In this document: one piece after another, positions 29,718-64,000 of the stretch
Layout of the letters: each line of letters starts with the position of its first letter
How positions within the stretch are numbered: position 1 is the first letter of the stretch
Origin: an uncultured Bdellovibrionales bacterium
GTDB taxonomy: Bacteria; Bdellovibrionota; Bdellovibrionia; Bdellovibrionales; UBA1609
Direction of reading: 5' to 3'
Length of the DNA: 64,000 bases
Assembly: GCA_903833275.1 (NCBI GenBank)
Contig: CAILEP010000013.1
Coordinates: 31,639-95,638, forward strand
Notes under the pieces: generated by a model
Told to the model about the DNA's origin: nothing
Seen by the model: the letters and a program-made list of their open reading frames with translations, nothing else
The model's database searches: none
Translations under genes and position numbers: made by a program

Positions 29718-29852
29718 GCACTTATCTATCGGAAATTCGTAGGGATAAGTGATGCAATCGCGATAGAATATAGACCTTTGTCGGGTATTGAAGTATTCTA
29801 GGAATTCAAACATATTGAGATAGCCGCATGAGCATGGCGTTAAGGAGTCCAA

Positions 29853-30179
29853 ATGGCCGGATTGACGAACCCAATTACTGATCAAACCTTTGAGCAAGAA
29901 GTTCTTAAATCTTCAACACCTGTGTTGGTTGATTTTTGGGCCGAATGGTGTGGCCCGTGCCGAAGTCTAGCTCCGAAGCTCGAAGAGATTGCGACCGAGA
30001 TGGCAAAGCAGGTGCGTGTCGTTAAAATCAATATCGATGAGAACCCGAATACTCCAGCTAAGTTTGGAATTCGAAGCATTCCGACAATTATCCTTTTCAA
30101 AAATGGCAAAGATGTTGAGCAGCTGCTCGGCAACCTACCCAAAGATAATATCGTCGAAATGATCAAGCGCCACATCTAG
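29853..30179 (+). CDS. trxA: Thioredoxin
   Basis: 108 aa with the WAEWCGPCR active site. Confidence 0.92.
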   Translation: MAGLTNPITDQTFEQEVLKSSTPVLVDFWAEWCGPCRSLAPKLEEIATEMAKQVRVVKINIDENPNTPAKFGIRSIPTIILFKNGKDVEQLLGNLPKDNIVEMIKRHI

Positions 30180-40198: not shown

Positions 40199-41635
40199 CT
40201 AGTGGGTGCGGGTCAGGTTGTTCTGGTTGATAAGGTCGCGAAGATCGTGGCCAAACCCAGATAGATTGGCCGGGTCTCGTATTGTAAGGCGGTTGTCGTC
40301 GACCTGAAGCTCTTGCTGGCCAACTTGTTGGCCAGGTTGGTGGTCGATCGAAAACTGCGCCTTCGGGATATTGGCGGTATTAACCGGTATTGAGCCTGAA
40401 ACATTGACCCCACCATCAAGAATCGCCAGCGCTCTGTAGGCGTTGAGACGCTTCTGGTACCGGGTTTTGCCGGCCAGCTTGCCGGGCTCAAGGTCGCCGG
40501 TTTCGGTAAGGTGGCGAATAATTCTTTGGGCATCAAAGTCGCCGAAGCGAGCCTTGATAAGGGCCGCAACACCGGTCACGACGGCTGTGGCCTGCGAGGT
40601 GCCTGTCATATATCCATAGTTGCCACCAGGTAACGTGGAGTAAATCTTTTTACCTGGAGCTGCAATATCAACCGATTGTTCGCCGTAGTTGCTTGAGGGC
40701 AGTACGTTGCGGTCTTCGTCGAAGGCCGTGACCGAGATAATATTGTCGAGGCCATAATCGGCGGGGTAGTACTTTTTGATATCCGAGTTCGACTGTTCGT
40801 TGCCGGCGGCGGCGACAAAGAGAATTCCCTTTTCGCGAGCAAGGGCAATGGCATCGCGTTCTTTATCGCTGGGCTCTAGACCGCCGCCCGAGTAGTTAAT
40901 GATGTTGGCGCCTTTTTGCACGCAGTAGCGAATCGCGCGTACGGTGTTAACCAGGTTATTGTTATTGGTTGATTCGGGGTCGTAGTATTTGGCGATAATA
41001 AGAGTGACGTGTGGGCTCACGCCGATGGCCCCGCGGCCGTTGACTCCTCCAGCGGCGCCGATGGCGCCGGCGATGTGGGTGCCATGACCGTGATGATCTG
41101 TGAGGTCGCCGTTGTTCGCGATAAAGTTACAGCCATGGATGTCGTCGACGCAGCCATCAGCATCGTCGTCGACTTGGTTGGTGGCCTTATCGCGGCCAAA
41201 CTGATCGCGACCACTTTCACCAGGGTTCACCCAAAGGTTCGGCTTGAGGTCAGGATGGTTGACATCGACGCCGGTGTCGATCACGCAGACCTTAACGTCC
41301 TTGCTGCCAAGGGCACGATGGCGCACCCAGGCTTCTTGAGTTTGTATCGATTTGAGATCCCACTTTTGTGACATAGCGGGGTCGTTTAAAAGCGCATCGA
41401 TTTCTTTTGTGGATTCGACTTTGGCCTTCATCGGTTCGCCGAGTTGGGTTTGGCGCACGGTCTTCGAGTTTCGGAGGCTGGCGAGATCGGCTTGCTCATC
41501 ATAGTTGGATTCGCTGCGCAGTTGGGCCACTCGCGCCATGTTGAATTGAATGGCGATAACGAGAGAGATAACACCGGCCCCAAATAGGATAAGGCCCTTT
41601 CTATCTCGTTTGTGTTGACCTTTCTGCTGAGCCAT
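40199..41635 (-). CDS. Secreted S8 subtilisin-like serine protease
   Basis: N-terminal anchor or signal (LILFGAGVISLVIAIQF). Triad contexts CVIDTGVD, HGHGTHIAG and GTSQATA. AAAGAGGTG ribosome-binding site upstream of the ATG. Confidence 0.85.
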   Translation of the reverse strand: MAQQKGQHKRDRKGLILFGAGVISLVIAIQFNMARVAQLRSESNYDEQADLASLRNSKTVRQTQLGEPMKAKVESTKEIDALLNDPAMSQKWDLKSIQTQEAWVRHRALGSKDVKVCVIDTGVDVNHPDLKPNLWVNPGESGRDQFGRDKATNQVDDDADGCVDDIHGCNFIANNGDLTDHHGHGTHIAGAIGAAGGVNGRGAIGVSPHVTLIIAKYYDPESTNNNNLVNTVRAIRYCVQKGANIINYSGGGLEPSDKERDAIALAREKGILFVAAAGNEQSNSDIKKYYPADYGLDNIISVTAFDEDRNVLPSSNYGEQSVDIAAPGKKIYSTLPGGNYGYMTGTSQATAVVTGVAALIKARFGDFDAQRIIRHLTETGDLEPGKLAGKTRYQKRLNAYRALAILDGGVNVSGSIPVNTANIPKAQFSIDHQPGQQVGQQELQVDDNRLTIRDPANLSGFGHDLRDLINQNNLTRTH

Positions 41636-41664: not shown

Positions 41665-41680
41665 AGCAAGAGTGATGCCG
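41665..41680 (-). promoter_or_regulatory. Sigma-54-type (-24/-12) promoter candidate for the S8 protease gene
   Basis: The minus strand reads CGGCATCACTCTTGCT, that is GGCA-N7-TTGC with correct GG-N10-GC spacing. It ends about 30 nt upstream of the ATG at 41635. Confidence 0.55.
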
Positions 41681-41773
41681 AGATCTACATGGACTAACTA
41701 TATGTAATTACTGGGGTATCATTATGGGAGCAAGGGGTTTTTCGATCACTTTCTAGAGGGCTGTCGACAGTTT

Positions 41774-41809
41774 GGTCACAGAGGAGGTCACAGAGGCGGT
41801 CACAGAGGG
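41774..41809. repeat. Three perfect-phase 12-bp tandem repeats, GGTCACAGAGG(A/C/G)
   Basis: GGTCACAGAGGA GGTCACAGAGGC GGTCACAGAGGG, read directly. It lies about 95-145 bp upstream of the sigma-54-like element of the protease gene. Confidence 0.9.
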
Positions 41810-41867
41810 GCGGCACTCGATTTTCAAGCGCGAGCCACGCCTATTGTCTGATATTAATGATTTGAAA

Positions 41868-49659: not shown

Positions 49660-50928
49660 CTAGCTATTGGTCGGGGCATTAGTTGAGACGCCATGCACTT
49701 GCGCCGGTGGGCTCAGGTAACTAAAAAAATCGGGCGACAGAATCATGGGTATTTCGAGTTTGAATCGGGCGTTTACGAAACTTAAAAATGTCCCACTGAA
49801 GCCTACCCATAGATCAGGAGTTGCCCAAAAAACGTCGTCGCTACTCCAAAACAGTGTGCCTTCTTTTTTTTGGGACAGAATATCCAGCGACGCCAGATCG
49901 TGGTCGAGTTCGATGTCGATTGAATGCAACGAATCTTTTTTGCAATCAATGCCTTTGCGCTTGAGCTCGCTGAGGAGGTTGAGTCGACCGGCGACCCCGT
50001 GGCAGAGAGTGGTGTTGTCATATCGGCGATTCGAAACAACTCGTTCAATCGCCCAATCCGAGACGCAATCAGTGGCTGTCGTTTTTGAAACCAAATCTGC
50101 CCAAAGCAGGCCGGCGGCACCGTGACACCAATTTAAGTTATTGGCCAACACGGGTGAGCCAGCGCGATACCTTAGCGATGTCTTCTGCGAATTCTGCGCG
50201 TATTTCAAGATTGATAGTCGAATTATTTCAGAAAGTTCGGTGATCGAGGGGTCTTCAATCAAATGGCTCAGTCGCTTAAGCACCATATAAAGGCCGATGC
50301 TTCCGTGGGCGACCCCAGAATAAATATCCTCGATGCCTTCATCGACGTTGGCGTCACGAATGCCTAAGACATTCTCTGAATTTTCAATTTTCTTAATCAA
50401 GGTCTTTGCCTTTTCCAAAACCAAATTGTGGATCCTGTTTGCCTGTGGGCTTAGGCTCGACTTTTCAAAGCTTTCAAGCCAAATGCAAGCCGCGTAAAGA
50501 ACACCTTGGCTGCCAGAGAAGAAATCAGAAAGCTCGACGTTTTCGAGCGAATAGATCAGCATTTCTTCTGCTGATTGGGTCATTGCTGTACTTCCAATAA
50601 AATTACCGGCTGCGGCTATACTCAGGGCCACCCCGGCATTACCAGTGAAAAAGCCATGGGATTTTTGGTCTATGCCGTTTTCGATTAGCCAGGTGGCGGC
50701 GAGGCGCACACGCTTTTCAATTAATTTTTTGAGCGGCTCACTTTTGAGATGGGGGCGAAGAGCAAGGAGAGCAAGTATAATCCCGCCGCTACCGAGATTA
50801 AGACCGCGCATCTGAGCATCTGGGTATAGATGTTCATTTCGCCAATAACCCCGACTTTCGGTTTCGTTGCAGACCCAATAACTCTCGAGTTTATTTAGGT
50901 ATTCGGCGGCCATTTTATCAAGAGACAT
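49660..50928 (-). CDS. Stand-alone LanC-like lanthionine cyclase
   Basis: LanC signature motifs SGVAHGSIG, NWCHGAAGLLWA and TLCHGVAGRL, giving the Cys/Cys-His zinc-ligand set. Repeated GxxG-containing helices fit an alpha-toroid. The start overlaps the kinase ORF's end by 11 nt. Confidence 0.8.
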   Translation of the reverse strand: MSLDKMAAEYLNKLESYWVCNETESRGYWRNEHLYPDAQMRGLNLGSGGIILALLALRPHLKSEPLKKLIEKRVRLAATWLIENGIDQKSHGFFTGNAGVALSIAAAGNFIGSTAMTQSAEEMLIYSLENVELSDFFSGSQGVLYAACIWLESFEKSSLSPQANRIHNLVLEKAKTLIKKIENSENVLGIRDANVDEGIEDIYSGVAHGSIGLYMVLKRLSHLIEDPSITELSEIIRLSILKYAQNSQKTSLRYRAGSPVLANNLNWCHGAAGLLWADLVSKTTATDCVSDWAIERVVSNRRYDNTTLCHGVAGRLNLLSELKRKGIDCKKDSLHSIDIELDHDLASLDILSQKKEGTLFWSSDDVFWATPDLWVGFSGTFLSFVNARFKLEIPMILSPDFFSYLSPPAQVHGVSTNAPTNS

Positions 50929-52321
50929 TATCTAATCCCCCAGCTAGAAGGTTTTGAATATCAGAAATTTTAGGGCGATCAATTGGGTTCGGGCTTAAGC
51001 AGGCAAGAATTATATTTTTCAAAGGTCTGTTGATTTTGGATATTTCGACCAAGCGACGCAATCGATCGTCACCGCTTGCAATAAATGAGGGATTGGTGCC
51101 GGTGCGTAGATGAAATAGGCAGCAGCCGAGGCTGTAAATATCCTGTTCGAATGAAGCCTCGATAAAGCGAGAGGGCTGGCTGGCCGCAGCGGCAATTAAT
51201 TCTGGCGAGTCATGGCCAGGGGTGCGAAAGCCATCCTGAACTTCACCCACGCGTTTGGCGTTGTCGAAGTCGAGAATGGCGAGTTGTCCAGCTTCAGTGC
51301 CGGCCCCGCGGTCATGAATAGTTGCAGAAGCCCCAAGAGCTAGAAAGTTTGCAAGTTTCAAATCACCGTGCACGATGCCGAGTGCGTGAATCTCTGCGAC
51401 CTGATCGGCGAGGAGTGCGTCTATTGAGGTCGAATGAAGGGCCAGTTTGTCGAGTCGAATGCCGGCAATATTTTTTACCGCAAGGGTCGTCCATTTTTCA
51501 TTTTGCCAAAACTCTAAAGGAGTCGGGACAAAACTGAGTTGTCTTAAGGCTTCAAGGCTTCGAGCTTCATTTGCAATTCTTGCTGCCGCAGCGTGGTCTT
51601 TTGTCGGTACTCGTTTAACAAAGACTTTTTCTATATTTCGAAGGTCAATGGCCTCGGCGACTTGAGACGGAAATGTTTTTATGACCTTGGTGACCCTAAA
51701 TGAAAAGCCGTTGGGTGATTCGATTAATTCACGACTCTCACTCCGCTCGCTATTGTCGCTTTCATACTTGTCTATTACGATTTCGGCATTGGCTAAGCTG
51801 CGGTAATAACGAACAGGTTGCCCTCGGCTGTTCTCAAAGAAAAGAGAGCGATAGGGCCCTCGGCGAAAAAAAAGTGTCGTGCTGTTTTGGGCTAAACTTT
51901 CGTTTGGAACATCGGGGCCGTCGAAGTCTTTAATATGGGCCACAAACCAGTCGACGACCTGTTGAAACTCTCCGTCGTTGTTCGGATAAAAGGTCATTAC
52001 TTTACCAATTTGGCTTGAGCCGGCCGCCCCGCTATTGATGGTCTCAACACCATTCAATGTCGACGGAAGCTTAAAGGCCACACTTGGAAACGAATGCCAG
52101 TTTGCAATCATTGCCGTTATCACACTAGAAAGGCCATTTTTGCTAAACGAGGCGTGGATCTTTCGCCCGCTGTCTCCTGGCGGATTATCAAGTGGTATAA
52201 ATAATCGCCAGGCAAACCCGCGAGTTTTAATTGAAGAGGTATTCCATTTCTCGAGTTCAGAGGCTGAACTTTCAAGGTCTTGCAATTTTTCGCCAAATTG
52301 TGATTGCATGAAATACCTCAC
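50918..52321 (-). CDS. Lanthipeptide-synthetase-like lyase + Ser/Thr kinase didomain protein (no cyclase domain)
   Basis: The C-terminal half has kinase motifs VFVKRV (Lys), HGDLKLANF (catalytic loop) and ILDFDNA (DFG-like). The N-terminal half has RKIHASF, AFKLPS and GKVMTFYPN. These resemble the WK(L/I)H(V/I)S and GKF(I/V)T(I/V)YP motifs I recall from LanL/LanKC phospho-Ser/Thr lyase domains. Confidence 0.65.
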   Translation of the reverse strand: MRYFMQSQFGEKLQDLESSASELEKWNTSSIKTRGFAWRLFIPLDNPPGDSGRKIHASFSKNGLSSVITAMIANWHSFPSVAFKLPSTLNGVETINSGAAGSSQIGKVMTFYPNNDGEFQQVVDWFVAHIKDFDGPDVPNESLAQNSTTLFFRRGPYRSLFFENSRGQPVRYYRSLANAEIVIDKYESDNSERSESRELIESPNGFSFRVTKVIKTFPSQVAEAIDLRNIEKVFVKRVPTKDHAAAARIANEARSLEALRQLSFVPTPLEFWQNEKWTTLAVKNIAGIRLDKLALHSTSIDALLADQVAEIHALGIVHGDLKLANFLALGASATIHDRGAGTEAGQLAILDFDNAKRVGEVQDGFRTPGHDSPELIAAAASQPSRFIEASFEQDIYSLGCCLFHLRTGTNPSFIASGDDRLRRLVEISKINRPLKNIILACLSPNPIDRPKISDIQNLLAGGLDNVS

Positions 52322-52333
52322 TCAAATTCGAGT

Positions 52334-53014
52334 TTAGTGCTTTGAAATGCTATTCGCGCCCGAAGTTTCTTTCTTAACACTGGCAAAATTGCCATATTCG
52401 ACAGTGTTTGAACCGCTGAGCTCCATTTGTAGAGAATGGCCCTCAAGATTCAAAAGGTTCGCTGAGTTCGCGCCGCTTGCAACGAGAATAAGATCTTTTA
52501 CATTGCCACCAATCTTAATTGTGCTGCTGCCAGAAAGATTGACGTGAAAATCCGTGGTTTGAGAAAGATCGAGTTCAAGTTGCGAGCGGCCAGACAGTTC
52601 AACGCTAGAGAGCGAAAGTTTTTGAATCTTGCCCATAGGCAAATTGACAGCGCCGCTTAATTCAATTTTCGCTAGCGATGACAAGTTTTTAACCTTCAAC
52701 CGTAGAGTGGGTCGCTTTGATGGGCTAATCCAGTGGCCCATCGAGATCTTGAGTTCGCCAAGATCGGACTTTATTGAAACTTGATCAATGAGGTTCTCAT
52801 CTATTGTAAACGAGACCGTATTATCTAATCCTGATTCGACATTAACTTCGAAGTTGCCACTGATATCAATTGAGTTAATTGAGTTTTCGAGCGAAACGGT
52901 TCGAGTCGACTGCAAGCCGTTGCCATTTGTCAATGGCCAGGCGTGCACGAGTGATGAAGTCAGAATTGATGCTGCCAACATGAGGGCCTGTTTAAATCGC
53001 GTTTGAGTGTACAT
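52334..53014 (-). CDS. DUF2807-like (GIN-domain beta-helix) secreted protein
   Basis: Signal peptide ...LTSSLVHA. Repeated S-G-x-x-x-(I/V) rungs (LSGSSTIKI, VASGANSANL, LSGSNTVEY, TSGANSISK) are typical of DUF2807. Confidence 0.55.
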   Translation of the reverse strand: MYTQTRFKQALMLAASILTSSLVHAWPLTNGNGLQSTRTVSLENSINSIDISGNFEVNVESGLDNTVSFTIDENLIDQVSIKSDLGELKISMGHWISPSKRPTLRLKVKNLSSLAKIELSGAVNLPMGKIQKLSLSSVELSGRSQLELDLSQTTDFHVNLSGSSTIKIGGNVKDLILVASGANSANLLNLEGHSLQMELSGSNTVEYGNFASVKKETSGANSISKH

Positions 53015-53507
53015 AATTTGGGTTCTCCATTTCTTTGTTTAATTCGGTTTTTATGAAAAATAGGCCAAGCCCTGATTTGCGGCAATAGTCGCGCAGGGAT
53101 TCAGACCCGCCAAGGGGGCCGGTGCCGAGTGACTGTCGTCCCCCCATAAAAAGAGAATGAATGCGAACAAGTTTTCGAGCTTCATTTAAAAACTCATAAG
53201 CATTCATGTTGAGGTCGATGTCGTCAAACTCACAGACCACAACACGATCCGCCCCGGCGGCGATCAATTCAGCTACTTTTTCGTCAACGGGGGGATACTT
53301 CGCTCTTTGCTCGGTATTGTTGGGCAAAAAGACAGCTGGGTGTGGATGAAGCAGAATAACAGCAATGCCAACTTGATTGGCTCGCGCAACTGTCTGCAAT
53401 TGCGCGATCAATTCACTGTGTTTAAGTTGCCAGGGCTGATATGCCCCCACGCACGAAATGTAACTTTCGTGCGTTGTTTCGTTTGATTTCACCAACCTCG
53501 TTCTCAT
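52992..53507 (-). CDS. FMN adenylyltransferase (RibF N-terminal, FAD_syn)-like protein with degenerate HxGH motif
   Basis: It aligns by eye along its length with the E. coli RibF N-domain. LLHPHPAVF matches LFEPQPLELF, AAGADRVVVCEFD matches ECGVDYVLCVRFD, and FMGGRQSLGTG matches VGDDFRFGAG. GNFDGVHRGH is replaced by GAYQPWQLKH. There is no riboflavin kinase domain. Confidence 0.6.
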   Translation of the reverse strand: MRTRLVKSNETTHESYISCVGAYQPWQLKHSELIAQLQTVARANQVGIAVILLHPHPAVFLPNNTEQRAKYPPVDEKVAELIAAGADRVVVCEFDDIDLNMNAYEFLNEARKLVRIHSLFMGGRQSLGTGPLGGSESLRDYCRKSGLGLFFIKTELNKEMENPNYVHSNAI

Positions 53508-53513
53508 TTGAGC

Positions 53514-53912
53514 CTACACAATGCTTGACGGGGTTTCGATCATGCGAGCGCTCGTTGCGCAGCAACCAGAGCAGGCGCACGTGCCATTGCAGGCGAACTC
53601 AATCCCTTCAACGTATTTTTCTTCGCCAAGAATCTCCATTTGTGCGTCAAGGCTGATATTACGCGCAGACATAACTTTAATTGGATTTTGAGTGAACTCG
53701 ATTGCAAGCGTCGGGTCGGCTTTCAAATCTAGTTTGAGCTGATTCACTTTGGCTTGAATTTCAGCAAAGATTTGTACGCGATTGCCTAACTCTTGCGCTC
53801 TTGGCGTTGGGACTTCTGCTTTTTCGTTTGCTGCATTTGCGTTTACTGCGGCGACCATGGCTGACGCCAATGCTCCTAGTTCTAACGTGGTTTGCATTAC
53901 TGTCTTACTCAT
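53514..53912 (-). CDS. Candidate lanthipeptide-type precursor (132 aa; long leader plus Cys/Ser/Thr-rich C-terminal core)
   Basis: The ATG at 53912 is preceded by AAGGGGA 6-7 nt upstream. The C-terminal 29 aa, IEFACNGTCACSGCCATSARMIETPSSIV, hold 5 Cys and 7 Ser/Thr. It is the first gene of the operon carrying the lyase-kinase and LanC. The track's 206-aa version (to 54134) overlaps the upstream gene and lacks an RBS. Confidence 0.55.
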   Translation of the reverse strand: MSKTVMQTTLELGALASAMVAAVNANAANEKAEVPTPRAQELGNRVQIFAEIQAKVNQLKLDLKADPTLAIEFTQNPIKVMSARNISLDAQMEILGEEKYVEGIEFACNGTCACSGCCATSARMIETPSSIV

Positions 53913-53966
53913 TTGGTTTCCCCTTTGTGAGGTTAATGACCGATTATTCGGTCTGCAGGGGATAAG

Positions 53967-53982
53967 AGCAAACAGCATGCCG
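53967..53982 (-). promoter_or_regulatory. Sigma-54-type (-24/-12) promoter candidate for the precursor/lanthipeptide-like operon
   Basis: The minus strand reads CGGCATGCTGTTTGCT, that is GGCA-N7-TTGC with canonical GG-N10-GC spacing. It ends about 55 nt upstream of ATG 53912. It shares the GGCAT...TTGCTCTT context with the 41665-41680 element. Confidence 0.55.
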
Positions 53983-54084: not shown

Positions 54085-54882
54085 CTACGGCTTTGGCTCG
54101 ATTGTGGTGGATTCAAATTCTTTGAGACGCTCAATTAACCATTCGGGGTCATCAAGTGGCAGGTCGTGACCGGCGGTGGGGTGAAACTTGAGTGTGATTG
54201 GTGCTTGAGGCAAAGCATTTGTAGAAAGCTTTTCGGCGATCATTTTCGAGCATCGCGAATCGACCATGCGATCTTTGAGCGACGATACGATCAGCGTCGG
54301 GATGGCGATTTGAGACGGGCAGCTGAACAAGGCAGCAGCGGTTGTCTGCCGCCAAACCTTATCGCGCAACATCGGGTGCTTTTTGGCGATGTCGACCATG
54401 GCGTTGATGATGACCGGGTCTTTGTCTTTCAAATTTGAAATTAACTTGAGCGACTGAACTTCTCTTTTTTCAGGTTCTTTCGCCGCGGCCATACGGCCGG
54501 CCGAATACAAAGCAAAAGGTGAGAGGCGTTGAAAAAGCGAAGAGACGTCGCGGGCGCTTGAATTGATGACGACGAGTTTTTTGAAGTCATCTGGGTAGCG
54601 CGCCACCCAGTCGAGCGCAATCATGCCGCCGAGAGAGACGCCAAGTAGCCCGAAATTATTTTGCGGGCCGCTTGAGAAAAACCGCTCGCGCAAATAATCG
54701 GTGTGGGCGGCGATTGAGAGCGGCACTTTGGCGTTACTTTCGGTGCCAAAGCCAGGCAAATCAAGGCATAGCACTTGGCTCGACGAATCAGCGTTCCTGC
54801 GCAAGGCCATTTGTAAAGCCTCTGGTAGATCGAGCCAGTGTTCTTTAACTCGGCCCAGCCCACGTAAAAGTAACCAGTTCAT
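54085..54882 (-). CDS. Alpha/beta-fold hydrolase
   Basis: Nucleophile elbow GVSLGGMIA (GxSxG) and a C-terminal HPTAGHDLP (catalytic His region). 265 aa. The start overlaps the M14-like gene's stop by 4 nt. Confidence 0.8.
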   Translation of the reverse strand: MNWLLLRGLGRVKEHWLDLPEALQMALRRNADSSSQVLCLDLPGFGTESNAKVPLSIAAHTDYLRERFFSSGPQNNFGLLGVSLGGMIALDWVARYPDDFKKLVVINSSARDVSSLFQRLSPFALYSAGRMAAAKEPEKREVQSLKLISNLKDKDPVIINAMVDIAKKHPMLRDKVWRQTTAAALFSCPSQIAIPTLIVSSLKDRMVDSRCSKMIAEKLSTNALPQAPITLKFHPTAGHDLPLDDPEWLIERLKEFESTTIEPKP

Positions 54883-55988
54883 GAATTGCCTCGATCGCGC
54901 CAGACGCTGTGGTTTAAAGTGGCTTGTTTAAAAAAATCTAAAAGAGGTCGATGGCGGCGCATGATGCGCCGATAGCGATGGGGCAAAATGGGGTTAAAGA
55001 TGCCGTGGCGGGTGAAGAGTTGCATTGGGTTTTTCTTTAGCCAGCTCCAGGAACCCATTTCAAGACACCAGGGGATAAAAATACGACCGTCGCTCGCGAA
55101 ATTTTTTTGATGCTCGTCAAAAATAAAATCCCACGGGTCGCCGTGTAGTAAATAACTTTGATGCTGGGGTTCGACAATATAAACGTGATGAGGGTAGGCC
55201 CCCGCGAGCAATTCAGAAACGCGATTGACTTGCGCTCGATACGGAAAGTTTTCACGACTTCGTGAGTACGGAAACCAAAGTCGGTCGCGCATGCCAAAAC
55301 CCGAATGGACATCGAGCGCCATTGAAAAACGGCTGGGCAGCATTTCGCGTTTTAAAAAATCGATGAGCGTGCGCGTTTCGACCTCCATCTCGGCCCCGGC
55401 TTTGCCGCGATACCAAGGCAGGCGGGGGCTAATGCGGTGGCCCGAAACGAGGGGTTTCAAATCACCATGGGCTTCGACCGGGGCGTTTCTCATAATGTCA
55501 ACCCCGCGCGGGTTCGAGCGCGAGTTCAGATACATGCCACCGGGGTTTACAATCGGTATTGCAACGAGCCGCATATGTCGAAAAGTTTCTTGTAAGGTTT
55601 CATCCCATGCGAGTTGTGAAAGCAGAGGTGTAAGAAAATTGATGGCCACATGAGAGCCGACGCGTTCGAGGCCGTGGACCCCGGCAAAGATACCAAAGGT
55701 CGGTAGCGAGCGATCATCAGGCCCGAGTGTAAGGCCGTAGATCGGTAAAGTGCGATCATCGGCTTGCACTTCGCTCAGTTTTTCAACACGACCGAATTTT
55801 TGCCACTGCTCAATCAGGGCGTTTTGATTTTCAATTTCAACAAGGTTGGGGTTGAGCATTTGTTTAAGATACCTTCTTGCATCGAATAATTGTATCGAAG
55901 TTGTGTCGAATTTTTTCGCGGCTAATGACATCTTGCGTGACATTAAGATCGACAGTATTTTTGAAATCGTGTTCGAAGAGTGATGCAA
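54879..55988 (-). CDS. M14-family zinc carboxypeptidase-like protein (DUF2817-like)
   Basis: FAGVHGLERVG contains the HxxE zinc motif. A later ALDVHSGFG supplies a second zinc His context. Confidence 0.6.
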   Translation of the reverse strand: MHHSSNTISKILSILMSRKMSLAAKKFDTTSIQLFDARRYLKQMLNPNLVEIENQNALIEQWQKFGRVEKLSEVQADDRTLPIYGLTLGPDDRSLPTFGIFAGVHGLERVGSHVAINFLTPLLSQLAWDETLQETFRHMRLVAIPIVNPGGMYLNSRSNPRGVDIMRNAPVEAHGDLKPLVSGHRISPRLPWYRGKAGAEMEVETRTLIDFLKREMLPSRFSMALDVHSGFGMRDRLWFPYSRSRENFPYRAQVNRVSELLAGAYPHHVYIVEPQHQSYLLHGDPWDFIFDEHQKNFASDGRIFIPWCLEMGSWSWLKKNPMQLFTRHGIFNPILPHRYRRIMRRHRPLLDFFKQATLNHSVWRDRGNS

Positions 55989-56037
55989 GCCTTGCGGACT
56001 TTGGTCTTGATCAAAATGAGCATATCGATCAGCTTTG

Positions 56038-56097
56038 ATTTCGAGGTGTGTAATTTTTCACTCAAAGCTGAATTTTGGCGCTGAATGACCTCGAAAT
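56038..56097. promoter_or_regulatory. 10-bp inverted repeat ATTTCGAGGT-N40-ACCTCGAAAT upstream of a sigma-54-like promoter
   Basis: Perfect arms at 56038-56047 and 56088-56097, 75-135 bp upstream of the -24 element at 56173. Confidence 0.35.
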
Positions 56098-56172
56098 AAG
56101 TCTAGTTCTTAGACAACGACAAAACGTTGTACGAAAAAATTAAATTTTGAATGGGTGTGGCGGCCCTGGTTG

Positions 56173-56188
56173 TGGCACGCAAGCTGCA
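56173..56188 (+). promoter_or_regulatory. Sigma-54-type (-24/-12) promoter candidate
   Basis: TGGCACGCAAGCTGCA matches TGGCACG-N4-TTGCW at all but one -12 position. It ends 45 nt upstream of ATG 56233, the first gene of the + strand string that ends in the giant cytochrome ORF. Confidence 0.6.
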
Positions 56189-56232
56189 CAGTTAGGTCAT
56201 TGTTCGATTCAATTGTCACGTGTGGGGGTTTT

Positions 56233-56898
56233 ATGATTCGCAGCATTCGCGTTTTGGCGATCGTGTCTTGCTTTGGGCTGTTTACAACAGCGTGTGGGGT
56301 CTCAACCAATGGCTTTGAAACTAGCGCGTCGAGTGCAAATGGGTCACAAGCTGTTGTCCCACTCGACCCGATTGCGGCCACCAATAAAGATATCGCGACT
56401 TTAAATACCAGGATTAGTGGCCTCAACACTTCGTTGACCGGCTCGAGCGGTCAACTTGATTTGATTACTTTGCTCAATTTGCAAACTCAGGCGGGCTCTG
56501 GAAGTTCATCAACAAGTAGTAATAAATTGAGTCAAGCGATCGGTAAACTTCTCGACAACTTAGTGGCCGGCGCGACGGCGGTTTATAATCAAATTAAAAC
56601 CACGGGTGTAAATATCCAGACTCGAATCGCGCAGTTGAACCCGGCCGACGCGACTCAAGCGAAAGTGATCGCACAGCTTCAGACATTTCAAACCGACCTC
56701 GTGCAATTTAAAACCCAGGTTGATACTGCCCTTAATAGTCTGGCGGCCAAAATGATCACTCTAGAGGCCAAAGTCGACAGCGACATTGCCAATATGAATT
56801 CATCTAGCCCTCTGACCTGGGTTGTAGAAGTTTATTGGGTCCCGGTGAAGACCCAAATTCAGCAGCACCATGATGCACTAGTGGCGCTTACGCAGTAG
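56233..56898 (+). CDS. Lipoprotein with predicted coiled-coil region, hypothetical
   Basis: The ATG at 56233 is preceded by GTGGGGG. Lipoprotein signal MIRSIRVLAIVSCFGLFTTAC. The mature part is Gln/Leu/Thr-rich and heptad-like. Confidence 0.55.
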   Translation: MIRSIRVLAIVSCFGLFTTACGVSTNGFETSASSANGSQAVVPLDPIAATNKDIATLNTRISGLNTSLTGSSGQLDLITLLNLQTQAGSGSSSTSSNKLSQAIGKLLDNLVAGATAVYNQIKTTGVNIQTRIAQLNPADATQAKVIAQLQTFQTDLVQFKTQVDTALNSLAAKMITLEAKVDSDIANMNSSSPLTWVVEVYWVPVKTQIQQHHDALVALTQ

Positions 56899-56982
56899 AG
56901 GCCCATTCAAAGGTCGATTAATGGCCTTCAGAATTGCGCCGAAGTTGATCGGCCATGCGATTCAATTTACTCTGAACATCAC

Positions 56983-57327
56983 ATGAAAAAGCCAAAGTTA
57001 GCTGTGGTTAAAAAGAGTGGGTCAAAAATGGGTGCGAGAAAAAAAGGTGAGAGCGAAGAGCTCGAGAACTCTGAAGAGCAAACGACTACCGGTGTAAATG
57101 CCTTGCCGATAAGGACCGACCCGTTTGCTAGGTCACTTAACAAATCAAAAGCCGGCAAAAACGCAACGGCTCATTTTAAAACAGACCGACGCACAGAAGA
57201 GCGACCCGAAACGTCGGGTCGGCGGCATTTTTTGAGGCCGTCGGCTGGTTTGAAGCGCCGCGGGTACATTATCGCTGCAGTTTTACTTGTGGCCATTATT
57301 GCTATTTGTACTTGGCTACTGAAATAA
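56983..57327 (+). CDS. Small basic protein with C-terminal TM helix, hypothetical
   Basis: 114 aa with a Lys/Arg-rich N-terminal part and the C-terminal helix YIIAAVLLVAIIAICTWLL. Confidence 0.4.
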   Translation: MKKPKLAVVKKSGSKMGARKKGESEELENSEEQTTTGVNALPIRTDPFARSLNKSKAGKNATAHFKTDRRTEERPETSGRRHFLRPSAGLKRRGYIIAAVLLVAIIAICTWLLK

Positions 57328-57427
57328 ATTTGTATTTTGAAAAAGTGTCTCAATTTGGGAATTTGAGTTTAATAGCCCTTTTGAAAATGCCGATAAGTAT
57401 CACATAGAAAACAAGCAGTTAAACCGC

Positions 57428-60400
57428 ATTAAGAAAAGAATCTTGGCCATCGTTATTGCGACCATGGCATTGCCGTTTATTTTTCAAGCCTGCGGCGTAA
57501 AACAACCAACGGTTGATCGCAATCTATCGTCTGCCGGCTATAGCCATTCGGGCAACGAGACAAACTGTTCGATGTGCCACGAAGGTCAACGCCCAAGTTC
57601 CACGCTATCGTTTAGCAATTTAAATTTTAATTCGTTGCCCTTTGATTACACAACACATGGTGCGGGTTTTGATTGTTACGAGTGCCATGCCAATAACACG
57701 ATGGGTTTTCGCGCACCGGCCGAATGGGCCAACGGGCGCTACAAGCATCCGGCGTCGCTGACAAAGTGTGCGACCTGCCATACTCCGCAACGGCCGGTGA
57801 ATTCTGTGGGGCCGAACACTTACACCGCTGTGGCATTTGTTCATTCGGTGAGCGGGCTTGGCGACTGTGCTGGTTGTCACCAGGCGACAATGGCCACGCA
57901 ATTTGCTTCGCTGGCAGATTGGCAAGGTGGGGCTGGGGCGCCTGCGATTTTAAAATTTGATGTTCGAAATAGTATTTCGGTGAACGAACAAATACCGACT
58001 TACTCGGCGACCAGCATTTCAATTCTGACGCCGCAAACGCAAGTGATCCCGATGAACATGAGCCACGCATCGGCGCAAATACCTCAGTCGGTCATTAACA
58101 ACTGCGTGCTTTGCCACGTGAGCGCTTATGCGACCCCACCGAGTTATTACCCTGGGGTTTTTCACGCCGCTATCGGCACCCAGCCATCAACTTGTGTCGA
58201 TTGCCATCGTGTAGTCGACATGCCGGTTGGTTTTGTTGGCACCACAAACGTCGGCCGCAACCCGGCGGGCCCTGAAATGAAACATGACGCCGTTGTGTGG
58301 TCGAAAAATTTGAGCGGCAGTTATGCGGCGACCAGTTCGGCCCTCGTTACCAATGATTGCAATGTCTGTCACCAGGTGCCGACCAACACTTCGCTCGGTG
58401 AGGCGTCGTGGCGCGTACCGACCACTGCGATCAGCGGCGGGAGTGTTTTTTATCACGCGTCGCTTGCGGCCAAAGGTCTCTCGCAACCGACTTCGTGTTT
58501 AGATTGCCACGCCAACAGCATGATCGCCGGGCCGCAACCAGCGGTGGCCTTGAACACGACTGTCATGCGCTTTGACCATTCTTGGAGTGTGTTGGGCAGT
58601 GGTGATTGCGTCACCTGTCACACGGCGCCGACGACTTTGGCGCAGACATCTTCTTTACTCGCCACTCCGTGGGTGGGCGGTGTTTTTCACCAACCGGCGA
58701 TCGATGCAACGTTGACGAGATGTGATTCTTGTCACGATGTTGCGGGCCGTTCGCAACGACCGACGGGCACCAGTTTGACAACTCCAAATGGCGTCGTTAA
58801 TAATTTCACCGCGTACAACGCGGCCGTCGCCCCTTTTGATACCTCAACACACGGCGCGCCACTTGATTGCATCGTCTGTCACGCGGCGACTGTGACCAAA
58901 TCGTCGGTCGCCAATTGGGCGGGCGGCAATTTCTATCATTTGGCTGCGAACACCGCGGGCACATTGACCTCATGTGTAGGCTGCCACGAAAGCGAGAGAC
59001 CGCTTTTAACCGTTGGCCCTAATGCTTTAATCGGTTCGGCGTTTAGTCATTTAACAAGTGGGCAGGGTGATTGCGTCGCCTGTCACCGCGCGACCGTTGT
59101 CGGCGGCACTGTTAATGATGGGCTGGGGCCGGTTTTGATCACCGGGGGTAAATTTGCAAAGTACAACACGACCAACACCACCACATGGGGCGATACTGAT
59201 TGGTATGGTGGGGTCACTTATAACCCGACCGGTCTTATGGGCCCGAACCCTGACCCCAATACTCCGCCGACTACGATTTCAGCAATTCAGTTGAGCTCGA
59301 ACACGGCCAATCTTTCGCAAATTACGACGAGCATAAACACTCAAACTCTCATTGGCCAAATGAGGCACACGTCAATTCAGGTGCCAGCCGTATTTTTTAC
59401 CGGCGCGAATTTGACCACCGCCAGCCCAGATGGTTCTTGCGCTGGCGCTTATTGCTGTTCGACTTGCCATACAAATTTGAAAGCGGCAGTGCCGGCTTTT
59501 GTGCCAGGCATTTTTCACGCAACTCTTACCGCTAATTCTTTGACGGCACCAACCGCGTGCCAAGATTGCCACGTCAATACAACTCCGAAAGATATCGTTG
59601 GGGCCGCGCCGCTACTCGCACCAATGGACCACGCCGCCGCTTTGTCGGGGGGCGGTTCTGCTGCTGCGAGCTTTGATTGTTTTGCCTGCCATAGTGCGAG
59701 CCCTCAAGGCCCACCCAATACATTTGGTGGTGGAACATTTCATGCGAACTTGAGCGGGCAGAACCCAAATAATTGCACGACCTGCCACTTTACGTCTTTG
59801 CCAACCGGGCTTTTTGCGCCGGTGCCCAATTATTCTCTAGCTTCAGCTTATGTAACGGGCATGAGGCACACGTCGACATTTGTCGCTGGTGATTGCGCCG
59901 CTTGCCATGCGCTTTCGAATATTTCAACATTGCCGGTCGTGACTTCAAGTTGGACGGGCGGTTTGTTTCATAAAAACACTTTGCCGAACGGTCTGACCTC
60001 ATGCAGTGATTGTCACACCACTAAGCCTTCGGGCTATGCGCAAAGTCTCAACGACACTCAGCACATGAATCACTCATCAACCAATGTCGGCAATGATTGC
60101 GCGATTTGCCATCAGGCTGAGTTGGTTATTGGTGCAACCCCGAATTCGTGGAGCCGATCGGCCCTCTTTCACACCGCCGTCCCGACCCCCGCTAGCTGTC
60201 GAGAGTGTCATGGCCTTAGTAACGGCGGCGGGGCCGTCGTTGGCACTAACAATGATTTGCCGGGCGTGGCGAATTACGGCGCGACGCTAATTAATTCAGG
60301 GACTTTAACCACATCGCCTGTGGCCGTGGCCGGCACCTATGATAAAATCGATCACACTGAAATTGATGTTGCCGGTCGAGATTGCAATTACTGTCACACG

Positions 60401-63400
60401 ACAGCGGGTATGGCGGCCAATGCGGGCGTCAAGTGGAAGTCGGCTTCGTTTCACGTTCAATTTTCTTCGAATACGCAAATCACTGGCCGTTGCGATTCTT
60501 GCCATATTGGTTTGAAGCCGACAGTTGTAGTCAATGGTGAAGATCACAGTCAGCTCGGTACAACCGATTGCAACTCATGCCACAATTATCCCGGCACGGG
60601 CATTGTCGGCGGCAGTGGTTCTTCGGCACCAAACTGGTTGGGCGCGACTTCATTGCCGACAACTTTAAAAACGGATTTGAATAAGAGTGTCGTATTGGTT
60701 GTGCAAATCCCGACCTATAATAGTACGTCGATATCATTATTGACCCCGCAGCCCGATGTTATCGCCATGAACATGAATCACTCGACAACCCAGGTGCCGC
60801 GCGCCAACCTCGATGATTGCATCATTTGTCATGCCGGTGCTTTTTCAAAACCGGCGAATTATACGGGCGGGGTATTTCATAATTCGTTGACCGCCGCAAC
60901 CTTGGCGCAGCCGACAACTTGTAGCGAGTGTCATGCGACTACCGATATGCCCATCGGTTTTATCGGCCCCACCGATTCAACTCGCACCCCCGCGGGCCCC
61001 GAGATGAAACACAACGCCGTTGTTTGGCAGAAGAATATCACCAGCGGTGTTTTCGCAGCGACAGCCACCCCGATGGTCGCCAACGACTGCGTCGTTTGCC
61101 ACCAAGTGCCGACCGCCTCACCGGGCAGTGGTAATGGTTGGAATATCCCGCCTGCTGCAATTAGTGCGGGCGCTGTTGCGTACTATCACGCGTCACTCGG
61201 CAACTCGAGCGTGGCGCAACCGGCTTCGTGTTTAGATTGCCACGCCAATAGCCGACCTGTTACGCCCGTTACAGGTACACTTTCGAACTTCGATCATTCG
61301 GCGACAATCGCCGGCATGGGCGATTGTAATGCTTGTCACGCGACGCCCACATCGGTGGCGCAAGTGACAGCTCTCAAACCGTGGTCGGGCGGAGTCTTTC
61401 ATTCGGTCGCGATTAACGCGACACTCACGTCTTGTAACTCATGCCACAATTCGCAGAGACCTACGGCTGCGACTTTTACAACTTCAGGCGGAGTGACGAC
61501 GGCCTTCACCGCCTACAACGCGGCCGTGAAACCATTTGATCTTGCGTCTCATGGCGGCGCTTTAGACTGCAAAGTTTGTCATACGCCAGGCACGTACACA
61601 GGTGCCGCGAGCTGGGCCGGCGGGGCCTTCGATCACTTGGCCGCCAACACGGCGGGCACTCTCACATCATGCTCAAACTGTCATACGACACAACGGCCAG
61701 CTGGCACGGTTGGCCCCAATGCTCTCATTAATTATGCATTCAATCACACGTTAAACGGGTCAGGCGATTGTATCGCTTGTCACCGCGCTTCGGTTGTTGG
61801 CGGCACGGTGAATGATGGCAATGGTAATATTATTATTTCAGCCGGTGGGCATTTCGCTAATTACGCGACGGCAAACGGGGCCGCTTGGGGCGATAGCGAT
61901 TGGTATGGCGGCGAAACTTATGACTCTATTGCGCTGATGGGCCCGAACCCGGCGCTGACGCCGCTTTCGATTACGGCATTGCATCTCAGTTCGGTCAGTG
62001 CGCCGCTTTCGCAGATCTCAGTCACCAGCAATACCCAAACTTTTGCCGGCCAGATGATGCATACGTCGACAGCGGTGCCGTCCGTTTTCTTTACCGGCGC
62101 GAACTTAACAACGGCCAACTCCAACGGCACTTGCGCGGGGGCGTATTGTTGTTCGACCTGTCATGCGAATTTAACGAACGCTACTCCGGCTTACTTGCCC
62201 GGTGTATTTCACGCGACAATTACAGCCCATGCGCTGCCGTCGGTGACGAAGTGCAAAGACTGTCACATTAATACGGCCCCAAAAGATATCGTCGGGGTGG
62301 GTAGCCCGAGTTTGCCGTTAACTATTGGGCTCACGACGCCGATGGATCACGCGGCTTTGCTCTCGGGCGGTGGCACGGCGTACTCTTCGTTTGATTGTTA
62401 CACTTGTCACGCGGCCAGCACGCAGGGCCCGCCGAATACTTTTAGTGGCGGTAAATTTCATGCAAGTCTTGGCGCCCAAACCCCGAGTAACTGCACGACT
62501 TGCCATTTTACGACTTTGCCGATCGGTACGTTTGCGCCGTTGCCGCTCTACCCGGCGGCGACCACTTTCGTGAGTGGCTTTAAACATTCGTCGGCTTTTG
62601 TTTCGGGCGATTGTTCTTCTTGTCATACGCTGACTAATATTAGTTCGTTGCCAGTGGCCACTACTTCTTGGGCCGGCGGCCATTTTCACAAAACAAATGG
62701 CCCCGTTGGCATTACGTCTTGCACCGAGTGTCACTCGTCGGCGCCTTCAAGTGTGACGATGAGCTCGAACGATTCGCAGCACATGGATCACACTGCAGTG
62801 TCGGCCTTGTATGACTGCGCGGTTTGCCACACGGGTGATTTAGTGGCGGGTACAACCCCCACCGCGTGGAACAAACTAACAAAGTTTCACACCATCGCGC
62901 CTAACCCAGCGACTTGCCAAGAATGTCATGGCCTTGCCAACGGCAGTTTAGTAGCTGGCAATGGCAATGATATACCGGGCGTTCTTAATTATGGTTCTAA
63001 CGTTGTTAGCACGGATTCGATCACAACTTCGTCGGTGGCACCAGCCAGTACGCATGATAAAATAGATCATGCGGTAGTTGATGTCGGCAGCCAAGATTGC
63101 AACTTCTGTCACACGGTCGTGGGCATGACCGCCGGTGGCGGGGTTAAATGGATGGCGGCAAAGTTTCATGCGAAGTTTGCGTCAAATGCGCAAATTCTCG
63201 AGCGTTGCGATTCTTGCCACACGAATTTGAAGCCGACAGTTATTGTCGGTGGTGAAGATCACAGTTTGATCGGCACTCAAGATTGCGCGAAATGCCATAT
63301 GTACCCGGGCACCGGTGCGGTCGGCGGGGCGGGCGCGACGGCGCCAAATTGGTTGGGCGCAGTGGCTGTGCCGACGACCCCGAAATTTGATGCGACGAAA

Positions 63401-64000
63401 TCAGTGCCAATCACAGTGCAGGTGCCAACTTACGTCAGCACTTCGATCACGGTGGTAACACCGCTGGCCGCGAGCATCCCGATGAACATGAATCACCAAA
63501 CGACGCAAATTAGCACGGCCAACATGGCGACTTGCTCAACATGCCACGCGGGTTATGTCACTGACAATTACACCGGTGGAGTCTTGCACGCTTCGCTCGC
63601 CGCAGCAGGCATTGCGCAACCTGTGACCTGTGCCGAATGTCACACCTTCGGCAATTTGCCGTCGGGGTTTATGGGCGCCTTTGGGCCGACGTTAACACCG
63701 CGAGTGCCGCCTTCGCCTGAAATGATTCACAATGCGGTGACTTGGGTTGCGAACACCGCCGGAACTTACGTTAAGTCGGCAACAAGTATCGTCACCACAG
63801 ATTGTTCTTCGTGCCATTTGGTGCCGACCACTCCGCCAGCTAGTGGCAATGGTTGGAGCAAATCGATTGCGACTCTTGCAAGCACTGTCACGTCATATTA
63901 TCACCCGTCGCTTTCGGCGAAAGCGTTAGCACAGCCGACCTCATGCTTAGATTGCCACGCCAACAGTCGACCGAGCGGCGCGATCACCGGCACACTCACG
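57428..64000 (+). CDS. Giant multihaem c-type cytochrome-like lipoprotein (partial; continues beyond window end)
   Basis: I translated this frame by hand (codon starts at 57341, 57344 and so on). There are no stop codons from 57341 to 64000. It contains 48 CxxCH motifs, the first at 57566-57580 and the last at 63944-63958. N-terminal lipoprotein-type signal KKRILAIVIATMALPFIFQAC. It is absent from the ORF track because it has no stop in the window. The start is tentative: ATT 57428, TTG 57443, or the first ATG at 57464. Confidence 0.85.
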   Translation, partial: MKKRILAIVIATMALPFIFQACGVKQPTVDRNLSSAGYSHSGNETNCSMCHEGQRPSSTLSFSNLNFNSLPFDYTTHGAGFDCYECHANNTMGFRAPAEWANGRYKHPASLTKCATCHTPQRPVNSVGPNTYTAVAFVHSVSGLGDCAGCHQATMATQFASLADWQGGAGAPAILKFDVRNSISVNEQIPTYSATSISILTPQTQVIPMNMSHASAQIPQSVINNCVLCHVSAYATPPSYYPGVFHAAIGTQPSTCVDCHRVVDMPVGFVGTTNVGRNPAGPEMKHDAVVWSKNLSGSYAATSSALVTNDCNVCHQVPTNTSLGEASWRVPTTAISGGSVFYHASLAAKGLSQPTSCLDCHANSMIAGPQPAVALNTTVMRFDHSWSVLGSGDCVTCHTAPTTLAQTSSLLATPWVGGVFHQPAIDATLTRCDSCHDVAGRSQRPTGTSLTTPNGVVNNFTAYNAAVAPFDTSTHGAPLDCIVCHAATVTKSSVANWAGGNFYHLAANTAGTLTSCVGCHESERPLLTVGPNALIGSAFSHLTSGQGDCVACHRATVVGGTVNDGLGPVLITGGKFAKYNTTNTTTWGDTDWYGGVTYNPTGLMGPNPDPNTPPTTISAIQLSSNTANLSQITTSINTQTLIGQMRHTSIQVPAVFFTGANLTTASPDGSCAGAYCCSTCHTNLKAAVPAFVPGIFHATLTANSLTAPTACQDCHVNTTPKDIVGAAPLLAPMDHAAALSGGGSAAASFDCFACHSASPQGPPNTFGGGTFHANLSGQNPNNCTTCHFTSLPTGLFAPVPNYSLASAYVTGMRHTSTFVAGDCAACHALSNISTLPVVTSSWTGGLFHKNTLPNGLTSCSDCHTTKPSGYAQSLNDTQHMNHSSTNVGNDCAICHQAELVIGATPNSWSRSALFHTAVPTPASCRECHGLSNGGGAVVGTNNDLPGVANYGATLINSGTLTTSPVAVAGTYDKIDHTEIDVAGRDCNYCHTTAGMAANAGVKWKSASFHVQFSSNTQITGRCDSCHIGLKPTVVVNGEDHSQLGTTDCNSCHNYPGTGIVGGSGSSAPNWLGATSLPTTLKTDLNKSVVLVVQIPTYNSTSISLLTPQPDVIAMNMNHSTTQVPRANLDDCIICHAGAFSKPANYTGGVFHNSLTAATLAQPTTCSECHATTDMPIGFIGPTDSTRTPAGPEMKHNAVVWQKNITSGVFAATATPMVANDCVVCHQVPTASPGSGNGWNIPPAAISAGAVAYYHASLGNSSVAQPASCLDCHANSRPVTPVTGTLSNFDHSATIAGMGDCNACHATPTSVAQVTALKPWSGGVFHSVAINATLTSCNSCHNSQRPTAATFTTSGGVTTAFTAYNAAVKPFDLASHGGALDCKVCHTPGTYTGAASWAGGAFDHLAANTAGTLTSCSNCHTTQRPAGTVGPNALINYAFNHTLNGSGDCIACHRASVVGGTVNDGNGNIIISAGGHFANYATANGAAWGDSDWYGGETYDSIALMGPNPALTPLSITALHLSSVSAPLSQISVTSNTQTFAGQMMHTSTAVPSVFFTGANLTTANSNGTCAGAYCCSTCHANLTNATPAYLPGVFHATITAHALPSVTKCKDCHINTAPKDIVGVGSPSLPLTIGLTTPMDHAALLSGGGTAYSSFDCYTCHAASTQGPPNTFSGGKFHASLGAQTPSNCTTCHFTTLPIGTFAPLPLYPAATTFVSGFKHSSAFVSGDCSSCHTLTNISSLPVATTSWAGGHFHKTNGPVGITSCTECHSSAPSSVTMSSNDSQHMDHTAVSALYDCAVCHTGDLVAGTTPTAWNKLTKFHTIAPNPATCQECHGLANGSLVAGNGNDIPGVLNYGSNVVSTDSITTSSVAPASTHDKIDHAVVDVGSQDCNFCHTVVGMTAGGGVKWMAAKFHAKFASNAQILERCDSCHTNLKPTVIVGGEDHSLIGTQDCAKCHMYPGTGAVGGAGATAPNWLGAVAVPTTPKFDATKSVPITVQVPTYVSTSITVVTPLAASIPMNMNHQTTQISTANMATCSTCHAGYVTDNYTGGVLHASLAAAGIAQPVTCAECHTFGNLPSGFMGAFGPTLTPRVPPSPEMIHNAVTWVANTAGTYVKSATSIVTTDCSSCHLVPTTPPASGNGWSKSIATLASTVTSYYHPSLSAKALAQPTSCLDCHANSRPSGAITGTLT
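58052..64000 (+). repeat. Intragenic 2,715-bp (905-codon) tandem super-repeat: two full copies, a partial third, and a tail fragment N-terminal to them
   Basis: The anchor motif PMNM(S/N)H starts at 58052, 60767 and 63482, each 2,715 bp apart. The following CxxCH motifs at 58103, 60818 and 63533 are also exactly 2,715 bp apart. Each full unit has 20 CxxCH motifs. The copies have diverged, with roughly half to two-thirds of residues identical by eye. Confidence 0.9.

Follow-up and report, generated by a model that had tools for sequence, protein, structure and literature searches.

A putative sigma-54 promoter conserved ahead of a lipoprotein gene family in Bdellovibrio-like bacteria

The window analysed here, a stretch of 64,000 nucleotides, carries at 56173–56188 on its forward strand a -24/-12 element which is very probably a functional sigma-54 promoter of the lipoprotein gene 56233–56898, and probably also of the small membrane-protein gene which comes next (Table 1). 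As judged from comparison with the loci of related lipoproteins, this promoter belongs to the lipoprotein gene family and not to the locus of the giant multihaem cytochrome further downstream. The first-pass annotation of this DNA had proposed a sigma-54-type promoter at the site, and the element turned out to be evolutionarily maintained across the loci of the lipoprotein family; its further view that the promoter controls the cytochrome locus was not supported in the form given, since the promoter tracks the lipoprotein and the cytochrome gene possesses a FliA-type match of its own. The rest of the window is ordinary chromosome, with genes for EF-P, RuvABC, LpxC, MreC, PBP2, RodA and ribosomal protein S4, and the best named relatives of its RuvB are found in the Bdellovibrionales and Pseudobdellovibrionaceae. 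The DNA comes from a metagenome contig.

Table 1. Features of the lipoprotein–cytochrome region, in window coordinates
Feature	Position	Strand	Remarks
Divergent M14 carboxypeptidase gene	54879..55859	-	Pfam Peptidase_M14; shares a 373-nt intergenic region with the lipoprotein gene
Second perfect 10-bp inverted repeat, TCAGCTTTGA-N23-TCAAAGCTGA	56029..56071		Absent from the first-pass annotation
Perfect 10-bp inverted repeat, ATTTCGAGGT-N40-ACCTCGAAAT	56038..56097		Candidate upstream activator site
6-bp inverted repeat, ACAACG-N6-CGTTGT	56113..56130		Arms 56113–18 and 56125–30; in a moderately conserved block, 56080–56142
Putative sigma-54 (-24/-12) element, TGGCACG-caag-CTGCA	56173..56188	+	From sequence reading and orthologue comparison
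Predicted 5' UTR	56199..56232	+	Start placed about 12 nt past the GC by general sigma-54 promoter geometry
Lipoprotein gene, 221 aa	56233..56898	+	Lipobox Cys21; first gene of the unit; founder of a four-helix lipoprotein family that had no annotation
Small protein gene, 114 or 99 aa (start at ATG 56983 or ATG 57028, respectively)	56983..57327	+	C-terminal hydrophobic helix
Sigma-28/FliA-type promoter match, TTAAT-N16-CCGATA(A)	57369..57395	+	Immediately precedes the cytochrome gene
Giant multihaem cytochrome gene, 3159 aa in full	57464..64000, continuing beyond the window as far as the equivalent of 66943	+	Alternative TTG start at 57443

The sequence TGGCACGCAAGCTGCA fills 56173–56188 on the plus strand, with its GG at 56174–75 and its GC at 56186–87, 10 nt apart. 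Eleven of the 12 specified positions of TGGCACGcaagCTGCA agree with TGGCACG-N4-TTGCW at the correct GG-N10-GC spacing, the single mismatch being a C for the first T of TTGCW; what had been reported of the motif at first pass (its place before the ATG at 56233, the one mismatch and the spacing) was borne out in full. It is intergenic, is oriented towards the lipoprotein gene and lies at promoter distance from it, the ATG being 44 nt past the end of the motif and the GC 46 nt before the ATG. No sigma-70-like -35/-10 pair was found on the plus strand of the intergenic region. With up to one mismatch allowed, TGGCACG-N4-TTGCW is expected 1.0 times per 64-kb window and occurred at least once in 60 of 100 shuffles (the core TGGCAC-N6-TGCW is expected 0.35 times per window), so that the match alone is weak evidence. 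Among the 656 GG-N10-GC sites in 77 kb this one scored highest, by a weighted consensus of our own rather than a published matrix.

Canonical sigma-54 promoters follow the consensus mrNrYTGGCACG-N4-TTGCWNNw (Barrios et al. 1999, as quoted in PMC2725144). The element resembles them in its exact TGGCACG and TGCA, in the GG and GC standing exactly 10 nt apart, in its intergenic position, orientation and suitable distance to the ATG, in the absence of sigma-70 hexamers and in a presumed distant activator, and it differs from them in the C noted above and in having neither an adjoining activator gene nor a recognisable IHF site. CTGCA is likewise found in the nifH promoter of Klebsiella. Within the predicted 5' UTR there is a Shine-Dalgarno sequence, GTGGGGG (56222–56228), which is invariant in the four-way alignment described below, and a GGGGG run precedes the lipoprotein ATG in 8/8 loci.

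Only two close relatives of the lipoprotein were found among 5.8 billion proteins, those of the loci L003 (70% identical) and L004 (65%), both on short contigs which include the upstream DNA. When the window was aligned with these two, 13/13 positions of GTGGCACG....CTGCA proved invariant and 0/4 positions of the spacer did (CAAG, AGGC and ACCT in the window, L003 and L004, respectively), the flanks being 46–49% identical pairwise over the 162 remaining aligned columns with no other invariant run longer than 3 nt. The chance of such a pattern in the three loci is about 2e-5. In terms of the alignment, invariant contacts around a free spacer are the signature expected of bases which sigma-54 contacts. 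At the same place L021, a locus on a JGI contig whose protein is 49% identical, has TGGCACG-cact-CTGCA; across the four closest loci (window, L003, L004 and L021) the 12 contact bases are invariant and the spacer varies freely, identity in the flanks being about 47%.

More distant members of the family carry comparable elements upstream of the lipoprotein ATG: TGGCATG-gtgg-GTGCA in L022 (32% protein identity), TGGTCCG-gcat-TTGCT in L025 (25%) and TGGCATT-aaat-CTGCA in L023 (22%), all three 39–49 nt before the ATG. These alter the flanking bases yet keep GG-N10-GC and TGC[A/T]. The contig of L024 starts inside a fitting element, CATA-gccc-CTGCA. In the family loci with readable upstream DNA (n = 7, the window included) the site lies 36–52 nt from the ATG, and in 6/6 other loci (1 to 20.7 kb) every other GG-N10-GC site, on whichever strand, ranks below the one ahead of the lipoprotein gene. 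The relaxed pattern TGG-N9-TGCW, chosen after the hits had been seen, has a shuffle probability of 0.009–0.022 per locus in the upstream 100 nt; multiplied over four independent lineages, this comes to 5e-8. The loci sampled were 8 of about 46 family representatives, picked by rank and not at random. It is because the lipoprotein-upstream site is top-ranked in every locus, with a joint chance of 5e-8, that we judge the sigma-54 promoter to be very probably real; on the same comparison, it would be an ancestral attribute of the lipoprotein family in Bdellovibrio-like bacteria. A k-mer search for a common upstream motif returned only A/T-rich words and CGACAAAA in 4/7 loci, which is too weak to call.

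The lipoprotein itself has no Pfam match. A profile search of 1.84 billion representatives yielded about 46 family representatives of 190–250 aa, from Bdellovibrio-like bacteria, and the lipobox cysteine is invariant in the family alignment; a scan of JGI metagenomes with the three-sequence lipoprotein alignment found nothing. The AlphaFold model is an all-helical bundle (pLDDT 82.7). Foldseek gave no match to this model in the PDB at E <= 0.001, none of the 50 best being significant, so no function follows from the structure.

The divergent pairing of the M14 peptidase and lipoprotein genes recurs in L004 and L021 with intergenic regions of 363–373 nt, and in L003, as probably also in L004, the lipoprotein gene is followed by the start region and N-terminus of the small protein. 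Elsewhere the downstream neighbours are a convergent RND pump gene (L021), a convergent MatE gene (L023), an S66 peptidase and an amidase (L022) and an HNH gene (L025); the L003 and L004 contigs stop before any cytochrome could appear. A cytochrome of about 70 haems downstream of the lipoprotein gene was seen only in the lineage of the window. Since relatives keep the promoter and the lipoprotein without a cytochrome downstream, we assign the promoter to the lipoprotein and not to the cytochrome.

Several further observations concern these neighbourhoods. The lipoprotein family repeatedly adjoins peptidase genes, namely M14, M28, S66 (with an Amidase_2 gene) and S8, in the window, L021, L022, L023 and L025, and three of the lipoprotein loci have the same TetR, LysR and alpha/beta-hydrolase genes close by as well, a hint that a cell-envelope neighbourhood has been conserved. 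The M14 peptidase was tried as an anchor in a collection with one genome per bacterial or archaeal species, from which the source species is absent; it led to 11 loci with 42–50% identity, none with the lipoprotein, the cytochrome or TGGCAC-N6-TGCW. About 75–85 nt upstream of the M14 start, TTGCGTGACA (55933–55942 in the window) is conserved in the window and L021, with AGCGTGACA in L004. It may be the peptidase gene's own promoter or operator.

The cytochrome, whose full length was read from L019 (10001–19480), has Pfam Cytochrome_C7 and MtrC/MtrF II–IV domains, 67 CxxCH and 3 CxxxCH motifs (about 70 haems) and a lipoprotein-type signal peptide. Its nearest homologues are 31–46% identical, the named ones coming from Myxococcota-type metagenome-assembled genomes, and the homologue loci L016–L018 differ in their neighbours and lack an upstream sigma-54 site; no orthologous cytochrome locus was found. 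The G+C content of the gene is 53–57% vs 46–50% in its neighbours, a difference compatible with later insertion; taken with the distant Myxococcota-type homologues, it suggests that a Bdellovibrio-like lineage acquired the cytochrome.

The match at 57369–57395, which lies 47–68 nt before the cytochrome start, recalls TTAAG-N16-CCGATA, the FliA consensus of two thirds of the attack-phase promoters of B. bacteriovorus (PMC3627812). It is like those promoters in 10/11 positions and in its right spacing; the likeness concerns the cytochrome gene's site, not the sigma-54 element at 56173–56188. At up to one mismatch the window holds 3 such sites vs 0.72 expected, 2/3 of them upstream of genes. The site also fits the E. 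coli-type pattern TAAA-N15-GCCGATAA with 1 mismatch, a pattern with 3 matches in the window vs 0.49 expected. Two further observations may be set beside these: another sigma-28 match, TTAAG-N16-CCGATG, is found at 24–50, ahead of the window's first gene, and the window has 12 copies of the octamer GCCGATAA vs 2.6 expected.

Two other explanations of this arrangement have to be considered, one concerning the nature of the element and the other its reach. The conserved GTGGCACG-N4-CTGCA might be the operator of another DNA-binding protein, or a variant of a sigma-70-family promoter, with a chance resemblance to sigma-54 sites; in its favour, half of the eight sequences are near variants of a single site, and the assignment to sigma-54 is made from sequence. 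Such an origin is nevertheless highly improbable, given that the conserved positions are exactly the sigma-54 contacts while the non-contact spacer is free to vary, that distant members retain GG-N10-GC and TGC[A/T] despite the changes in their flanks, that the element is not palindromic, that 36–52 nt to the ATG suits a promoter and that no -10/-35 pair is conserved nearby. As for its reach, the first-pass reading was that the sigma-54 promoter controls the whole string of lipoprotein, small protein and giant cytochrome genes and that the cytochrome is gated by an enhancer-binding protein (EBP). We would call this quite conceivable, if somewhat short of probable. The three genes are on one strand with gaps of 84 nt and about 115–136 nt, no terminator of the hairpin plus U-run type was found between them, no further sigma-54 or sigma-70 match precedes the cytochrome gene, the small-protein gene is kept after the lipoprotein gene in L003 and probably L004, and there is a precedent in cbcBA of Geobacter sulfurreducens, which is expressed from a sigma-54 promoter via BccR (bioRxiv 10.1101/2021.04.15.440034). 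Against it stand the retention of the promoter with the lipoprotein in cytochrome-free loci (L021, L022, L023 and L025), the FliA-type match of the cytochrome gene's own at 57369–57395, the homologues elsewhere which lack an upstream sigma-54 site, and a G+C content above that of the neighbours and compatible with later insertion. Because the cytochrome gene has this sigma-28/FliA match, EBP gating is possible by way of read-through and is not implied, and, going by the promoter matches, sigma-28 control of the attack-phase type is at least as likely as EBP gating.

If the element behaves as a sigma-54 promoter, RNA polymerase with sigma-54 would bind the -24 GG and the -12 GC as a closed complex, and transcription would start near 56199 only once an AAA+ enhancer-binding protein, bound upstream and presumably encoded elsewhere in the genome, hydrolyses ATP. 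The lipoprotein gene would be driven from 56173–56188, the small membrane-protein gene probably also, and the cytochrome gene could receive read-through from the same promoter in addition to having its own sigma-28-type match. These steps are taken from how all sigma-54 promoters work. The motif, where it lies and its conservation were observed directly, and we infer from them that the site depends on sigma-54 in vivo, where transcription starts, that an activator acts and binds upstream, and that genes are co-transcribed. The first pass had remarked that the window encodes no EBP, and indeed neither a motif scan nor Pfam disclosed a Sigma54_activat or enhancer-binding protein gene in the window or in the next 13 kb (77 kb in all). 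A Pseudobdellovibrio metagenome-assembled genome (locus L015) encodes an activator of the NtrC type (receiver/Sigma54_activat/HTH_8), B. bacteriovorus has an RpoN-like gene, bd0843 (PMC3464611), and rpoN is present in Bacteriovorax marinus (PMC3526173). Between the candidate activator site and the promoter, matches to the IHF consensus WATCAANNNNTTR reach no better than 2 mismatches in any locus, and no match at all was found in L021 or L025.

Both inverted repeats named at first pass, the 10-bp and the 6-bp one, were present when the sequence was read again. The 10-bp repeat has the arms ATTTCGAGGT (56038–47) and ACCTCGAAAT (56088–97), and the second repeat TCAGCTTTGA (56029–38) and TCAAAGCTGA (56062–71), base 56038 being common to both. 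A single 19-nt left element, that is, pairs with two separate downstream elements, and the repeats are interlocked over 56029–56097. When the 373-nt intergenic region was shuffled, 4.4% of the shuffles had a perfect inverted repeat of 10 bp within 80 nt and 1.3% had two or more. A 9/10 inverted repeat is found in L003 at the same distance from the -24 element as the window's 10-bp repeat, and two direct copies of GTCGAGTTA are found in L022 at the same distances; L004 and L021 have nothing comparable to the 10-bp repeat at those positions. Repeats thus occur at similar positions in 3/7 loci, and their sequence is not conserved. Nor is the 6-bp repeat conserved in sequence, each close orthologue having a different palindrome, centred roughly 65 to 90 nt before the inferred start; those which align with it are TTGTCGATGTTT/AAACGTCGACAA in L021, TATTTTTTC/GACAAAATA in L003 and TATTTTTC-N4-GAAAAATA in L004. 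A separate peculiarity of L021 (9906–9934), as compared with the other three orthologues, is that the conserved upstream block (CGACAAAAAA) and the -24 element are set further apart by an inserted 11 bp, which is one helical turn.

The first pass had placed the repeats where EBP sites are expected. That part of its account stands in so far as they exist and the 10-bp repeat is statistically unusual; it is weakened by their want of sequence conservation in L004 and L021. The inverted repeats, being statistically unusual but not sequence-conserved, are therefore unproven as activator sites, and these patterns, seen after the fact, are compatible with an activator site. We accordingly think it possible, though less likely than not, that the interlocked 10-bp repeats are activator binding sites (UAS) of the sigma-54 promoter. 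Their position, 102–170 nt before the inferred start, is the classic one for a UAS; two perfect repeats were as rare in shuffles as stated above; at matching places relative to the -24 T, about -135 and -85, there are repeats in L003 (inverted) and in L022 (direct) too; a TCGAG core is common to the window arms and the L022 repeats; and the L021 insertion, at one helical turn, keeps the helical phasing. On the other side, besides the missing repeats of L004 and L021, arms 23–40 nt apart are not what a dimer dyad usually looks like, the sites might just as well belong to the divergent M14 peptidase gene, and the positional coincidences were spotted by eye, afterwards. The repeats might alternatively represent RNA or DNA secondary structure, for example in the leader of the divergent M14 mRNA, and here one can point to the minus-strand fold of 56020–56105, which is more stable than shuffles (z = -2.9), and to the left arm, which differs between the window and L003 as do its partners, giving an appearance of covariation. 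Secondary structure is very unlikely all the same: the plus strand of the window, and both strands in L003 and L004, fold no better than shuffles (z -1.3 to +0.9), the two helices would cross each other, and Rfam gave no match, either for the whole window at gathering score or for 55800–57500 at E <= 1. RNA folding of the repeat region in the window, L003 and L004 gave no conserved structure.

Other parts of the window deserve mention in their own right. A likely lanthipeptide cluster occupies 49660–53982 on the minus strand; its 132-aa ORF (53514–53912) ends in a Cys/Ser/Thr-rich tail (...ACNGTCACSGCCATS...) and is followed by genes for a FAD_syn-like protein, a DUF2807 protein, a RamC_N+Pkinase protein and, separately, a LANC_like protein. 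About 55 nt before the ATG of this ORF there is a weaker site of sigma-54 type, CGGCATG-ctgt-TTGCT (53982–53967). Again on the minus strand, at 41665–41820, sigma-54-like CGGCATC-actc-TTGCT is found 30 nt before an S8 peptidase gene (40199–41635), and three tandem copies of CCTCTGTGACC lie about 110–150 nt further upstream, a distance typical of an activator site. Two unusual domain combinations were also encountered, an S8 subtilase with a C-terminal PilZ (c-di-GMP-binding) domain (36465–38423, plus strand) and a 705-aa protein with a response-regulator receiver and a DnaJ domain (27780–29897, minus strand).

In Geobacter sulfurreducens a sigma-54 promoter which lies before two hypothetical genes drives cbcBA through the activator BccR (bioRxiv 10.1101/2021.04.15.440034). 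On likeness of arrangement, this is the closest functional analogue involving cytochromes: in both cases a sigma-54 promoter, here a putative one, is followed by small hypothetical genes and then by multihaem cytochrome genes on the same strand. In Geobacter, however, the gene for the activator is the divergent neighbour and is retained together with the cytochromes, whereas here the divergent gene encodes an M14 peptidase and no activator was found within 77 kb; the promoter here tracks the lipoprotein family, not the cytochrome; and the cytochromes are unrelated in type, CbcA being a 7-haem inner-membrane protein and the present one a 3159-aa lipoprotein of about 70 haems. The pspA promoter of E. 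coli, which depends on sigma-54, PspF and IHF, likewise drives an all-helical, envelope-associated protein of about 220 aa. PspA, though, is cytoplasmic and has no signal peptide. Unlike it, the lipoprotein has no PspA-type chain among its 50 best Foldseek matches and no sequence or Pfam similarity, and its promoter has no IHF site.

What lends this case modest further interest is the family-wide conservation of the sigma-54 element and a possible dual sigma-54/sigma-28 control of the giant cytochrome; the promoter type itself is ordinary, as is a sigma-54 promoter before a cell-envelope gene. One might imagine a lipoprotein family which is universally sigma-54-dependent and often beside peptidase genes, behind which a cytochrome of about 70 haems was inserted in one lineage and came under dual control, by EBP/sigma-54 read-through and by attack-phase sigma-28. 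We think this combined scheme unlikely; were it true, an extracellular-electron-transfer-type protein would be under both sigma-54 and sigma-28, and the giant cytochrome would be turned on within the hunting programme of what is likely a predatory bacterium. As matters stand, the regulation of the giant cytochrome should not be presumed to be EBP-gated. A motif match with about even odds of being noise has become a well-supported promoter assigned to the right gene, and a new lipoprotein family with a common, putative sigma-54 promoter would provide a way into the RpoN regulon of Bdellovibrio-like bacteria, which has been little studied.
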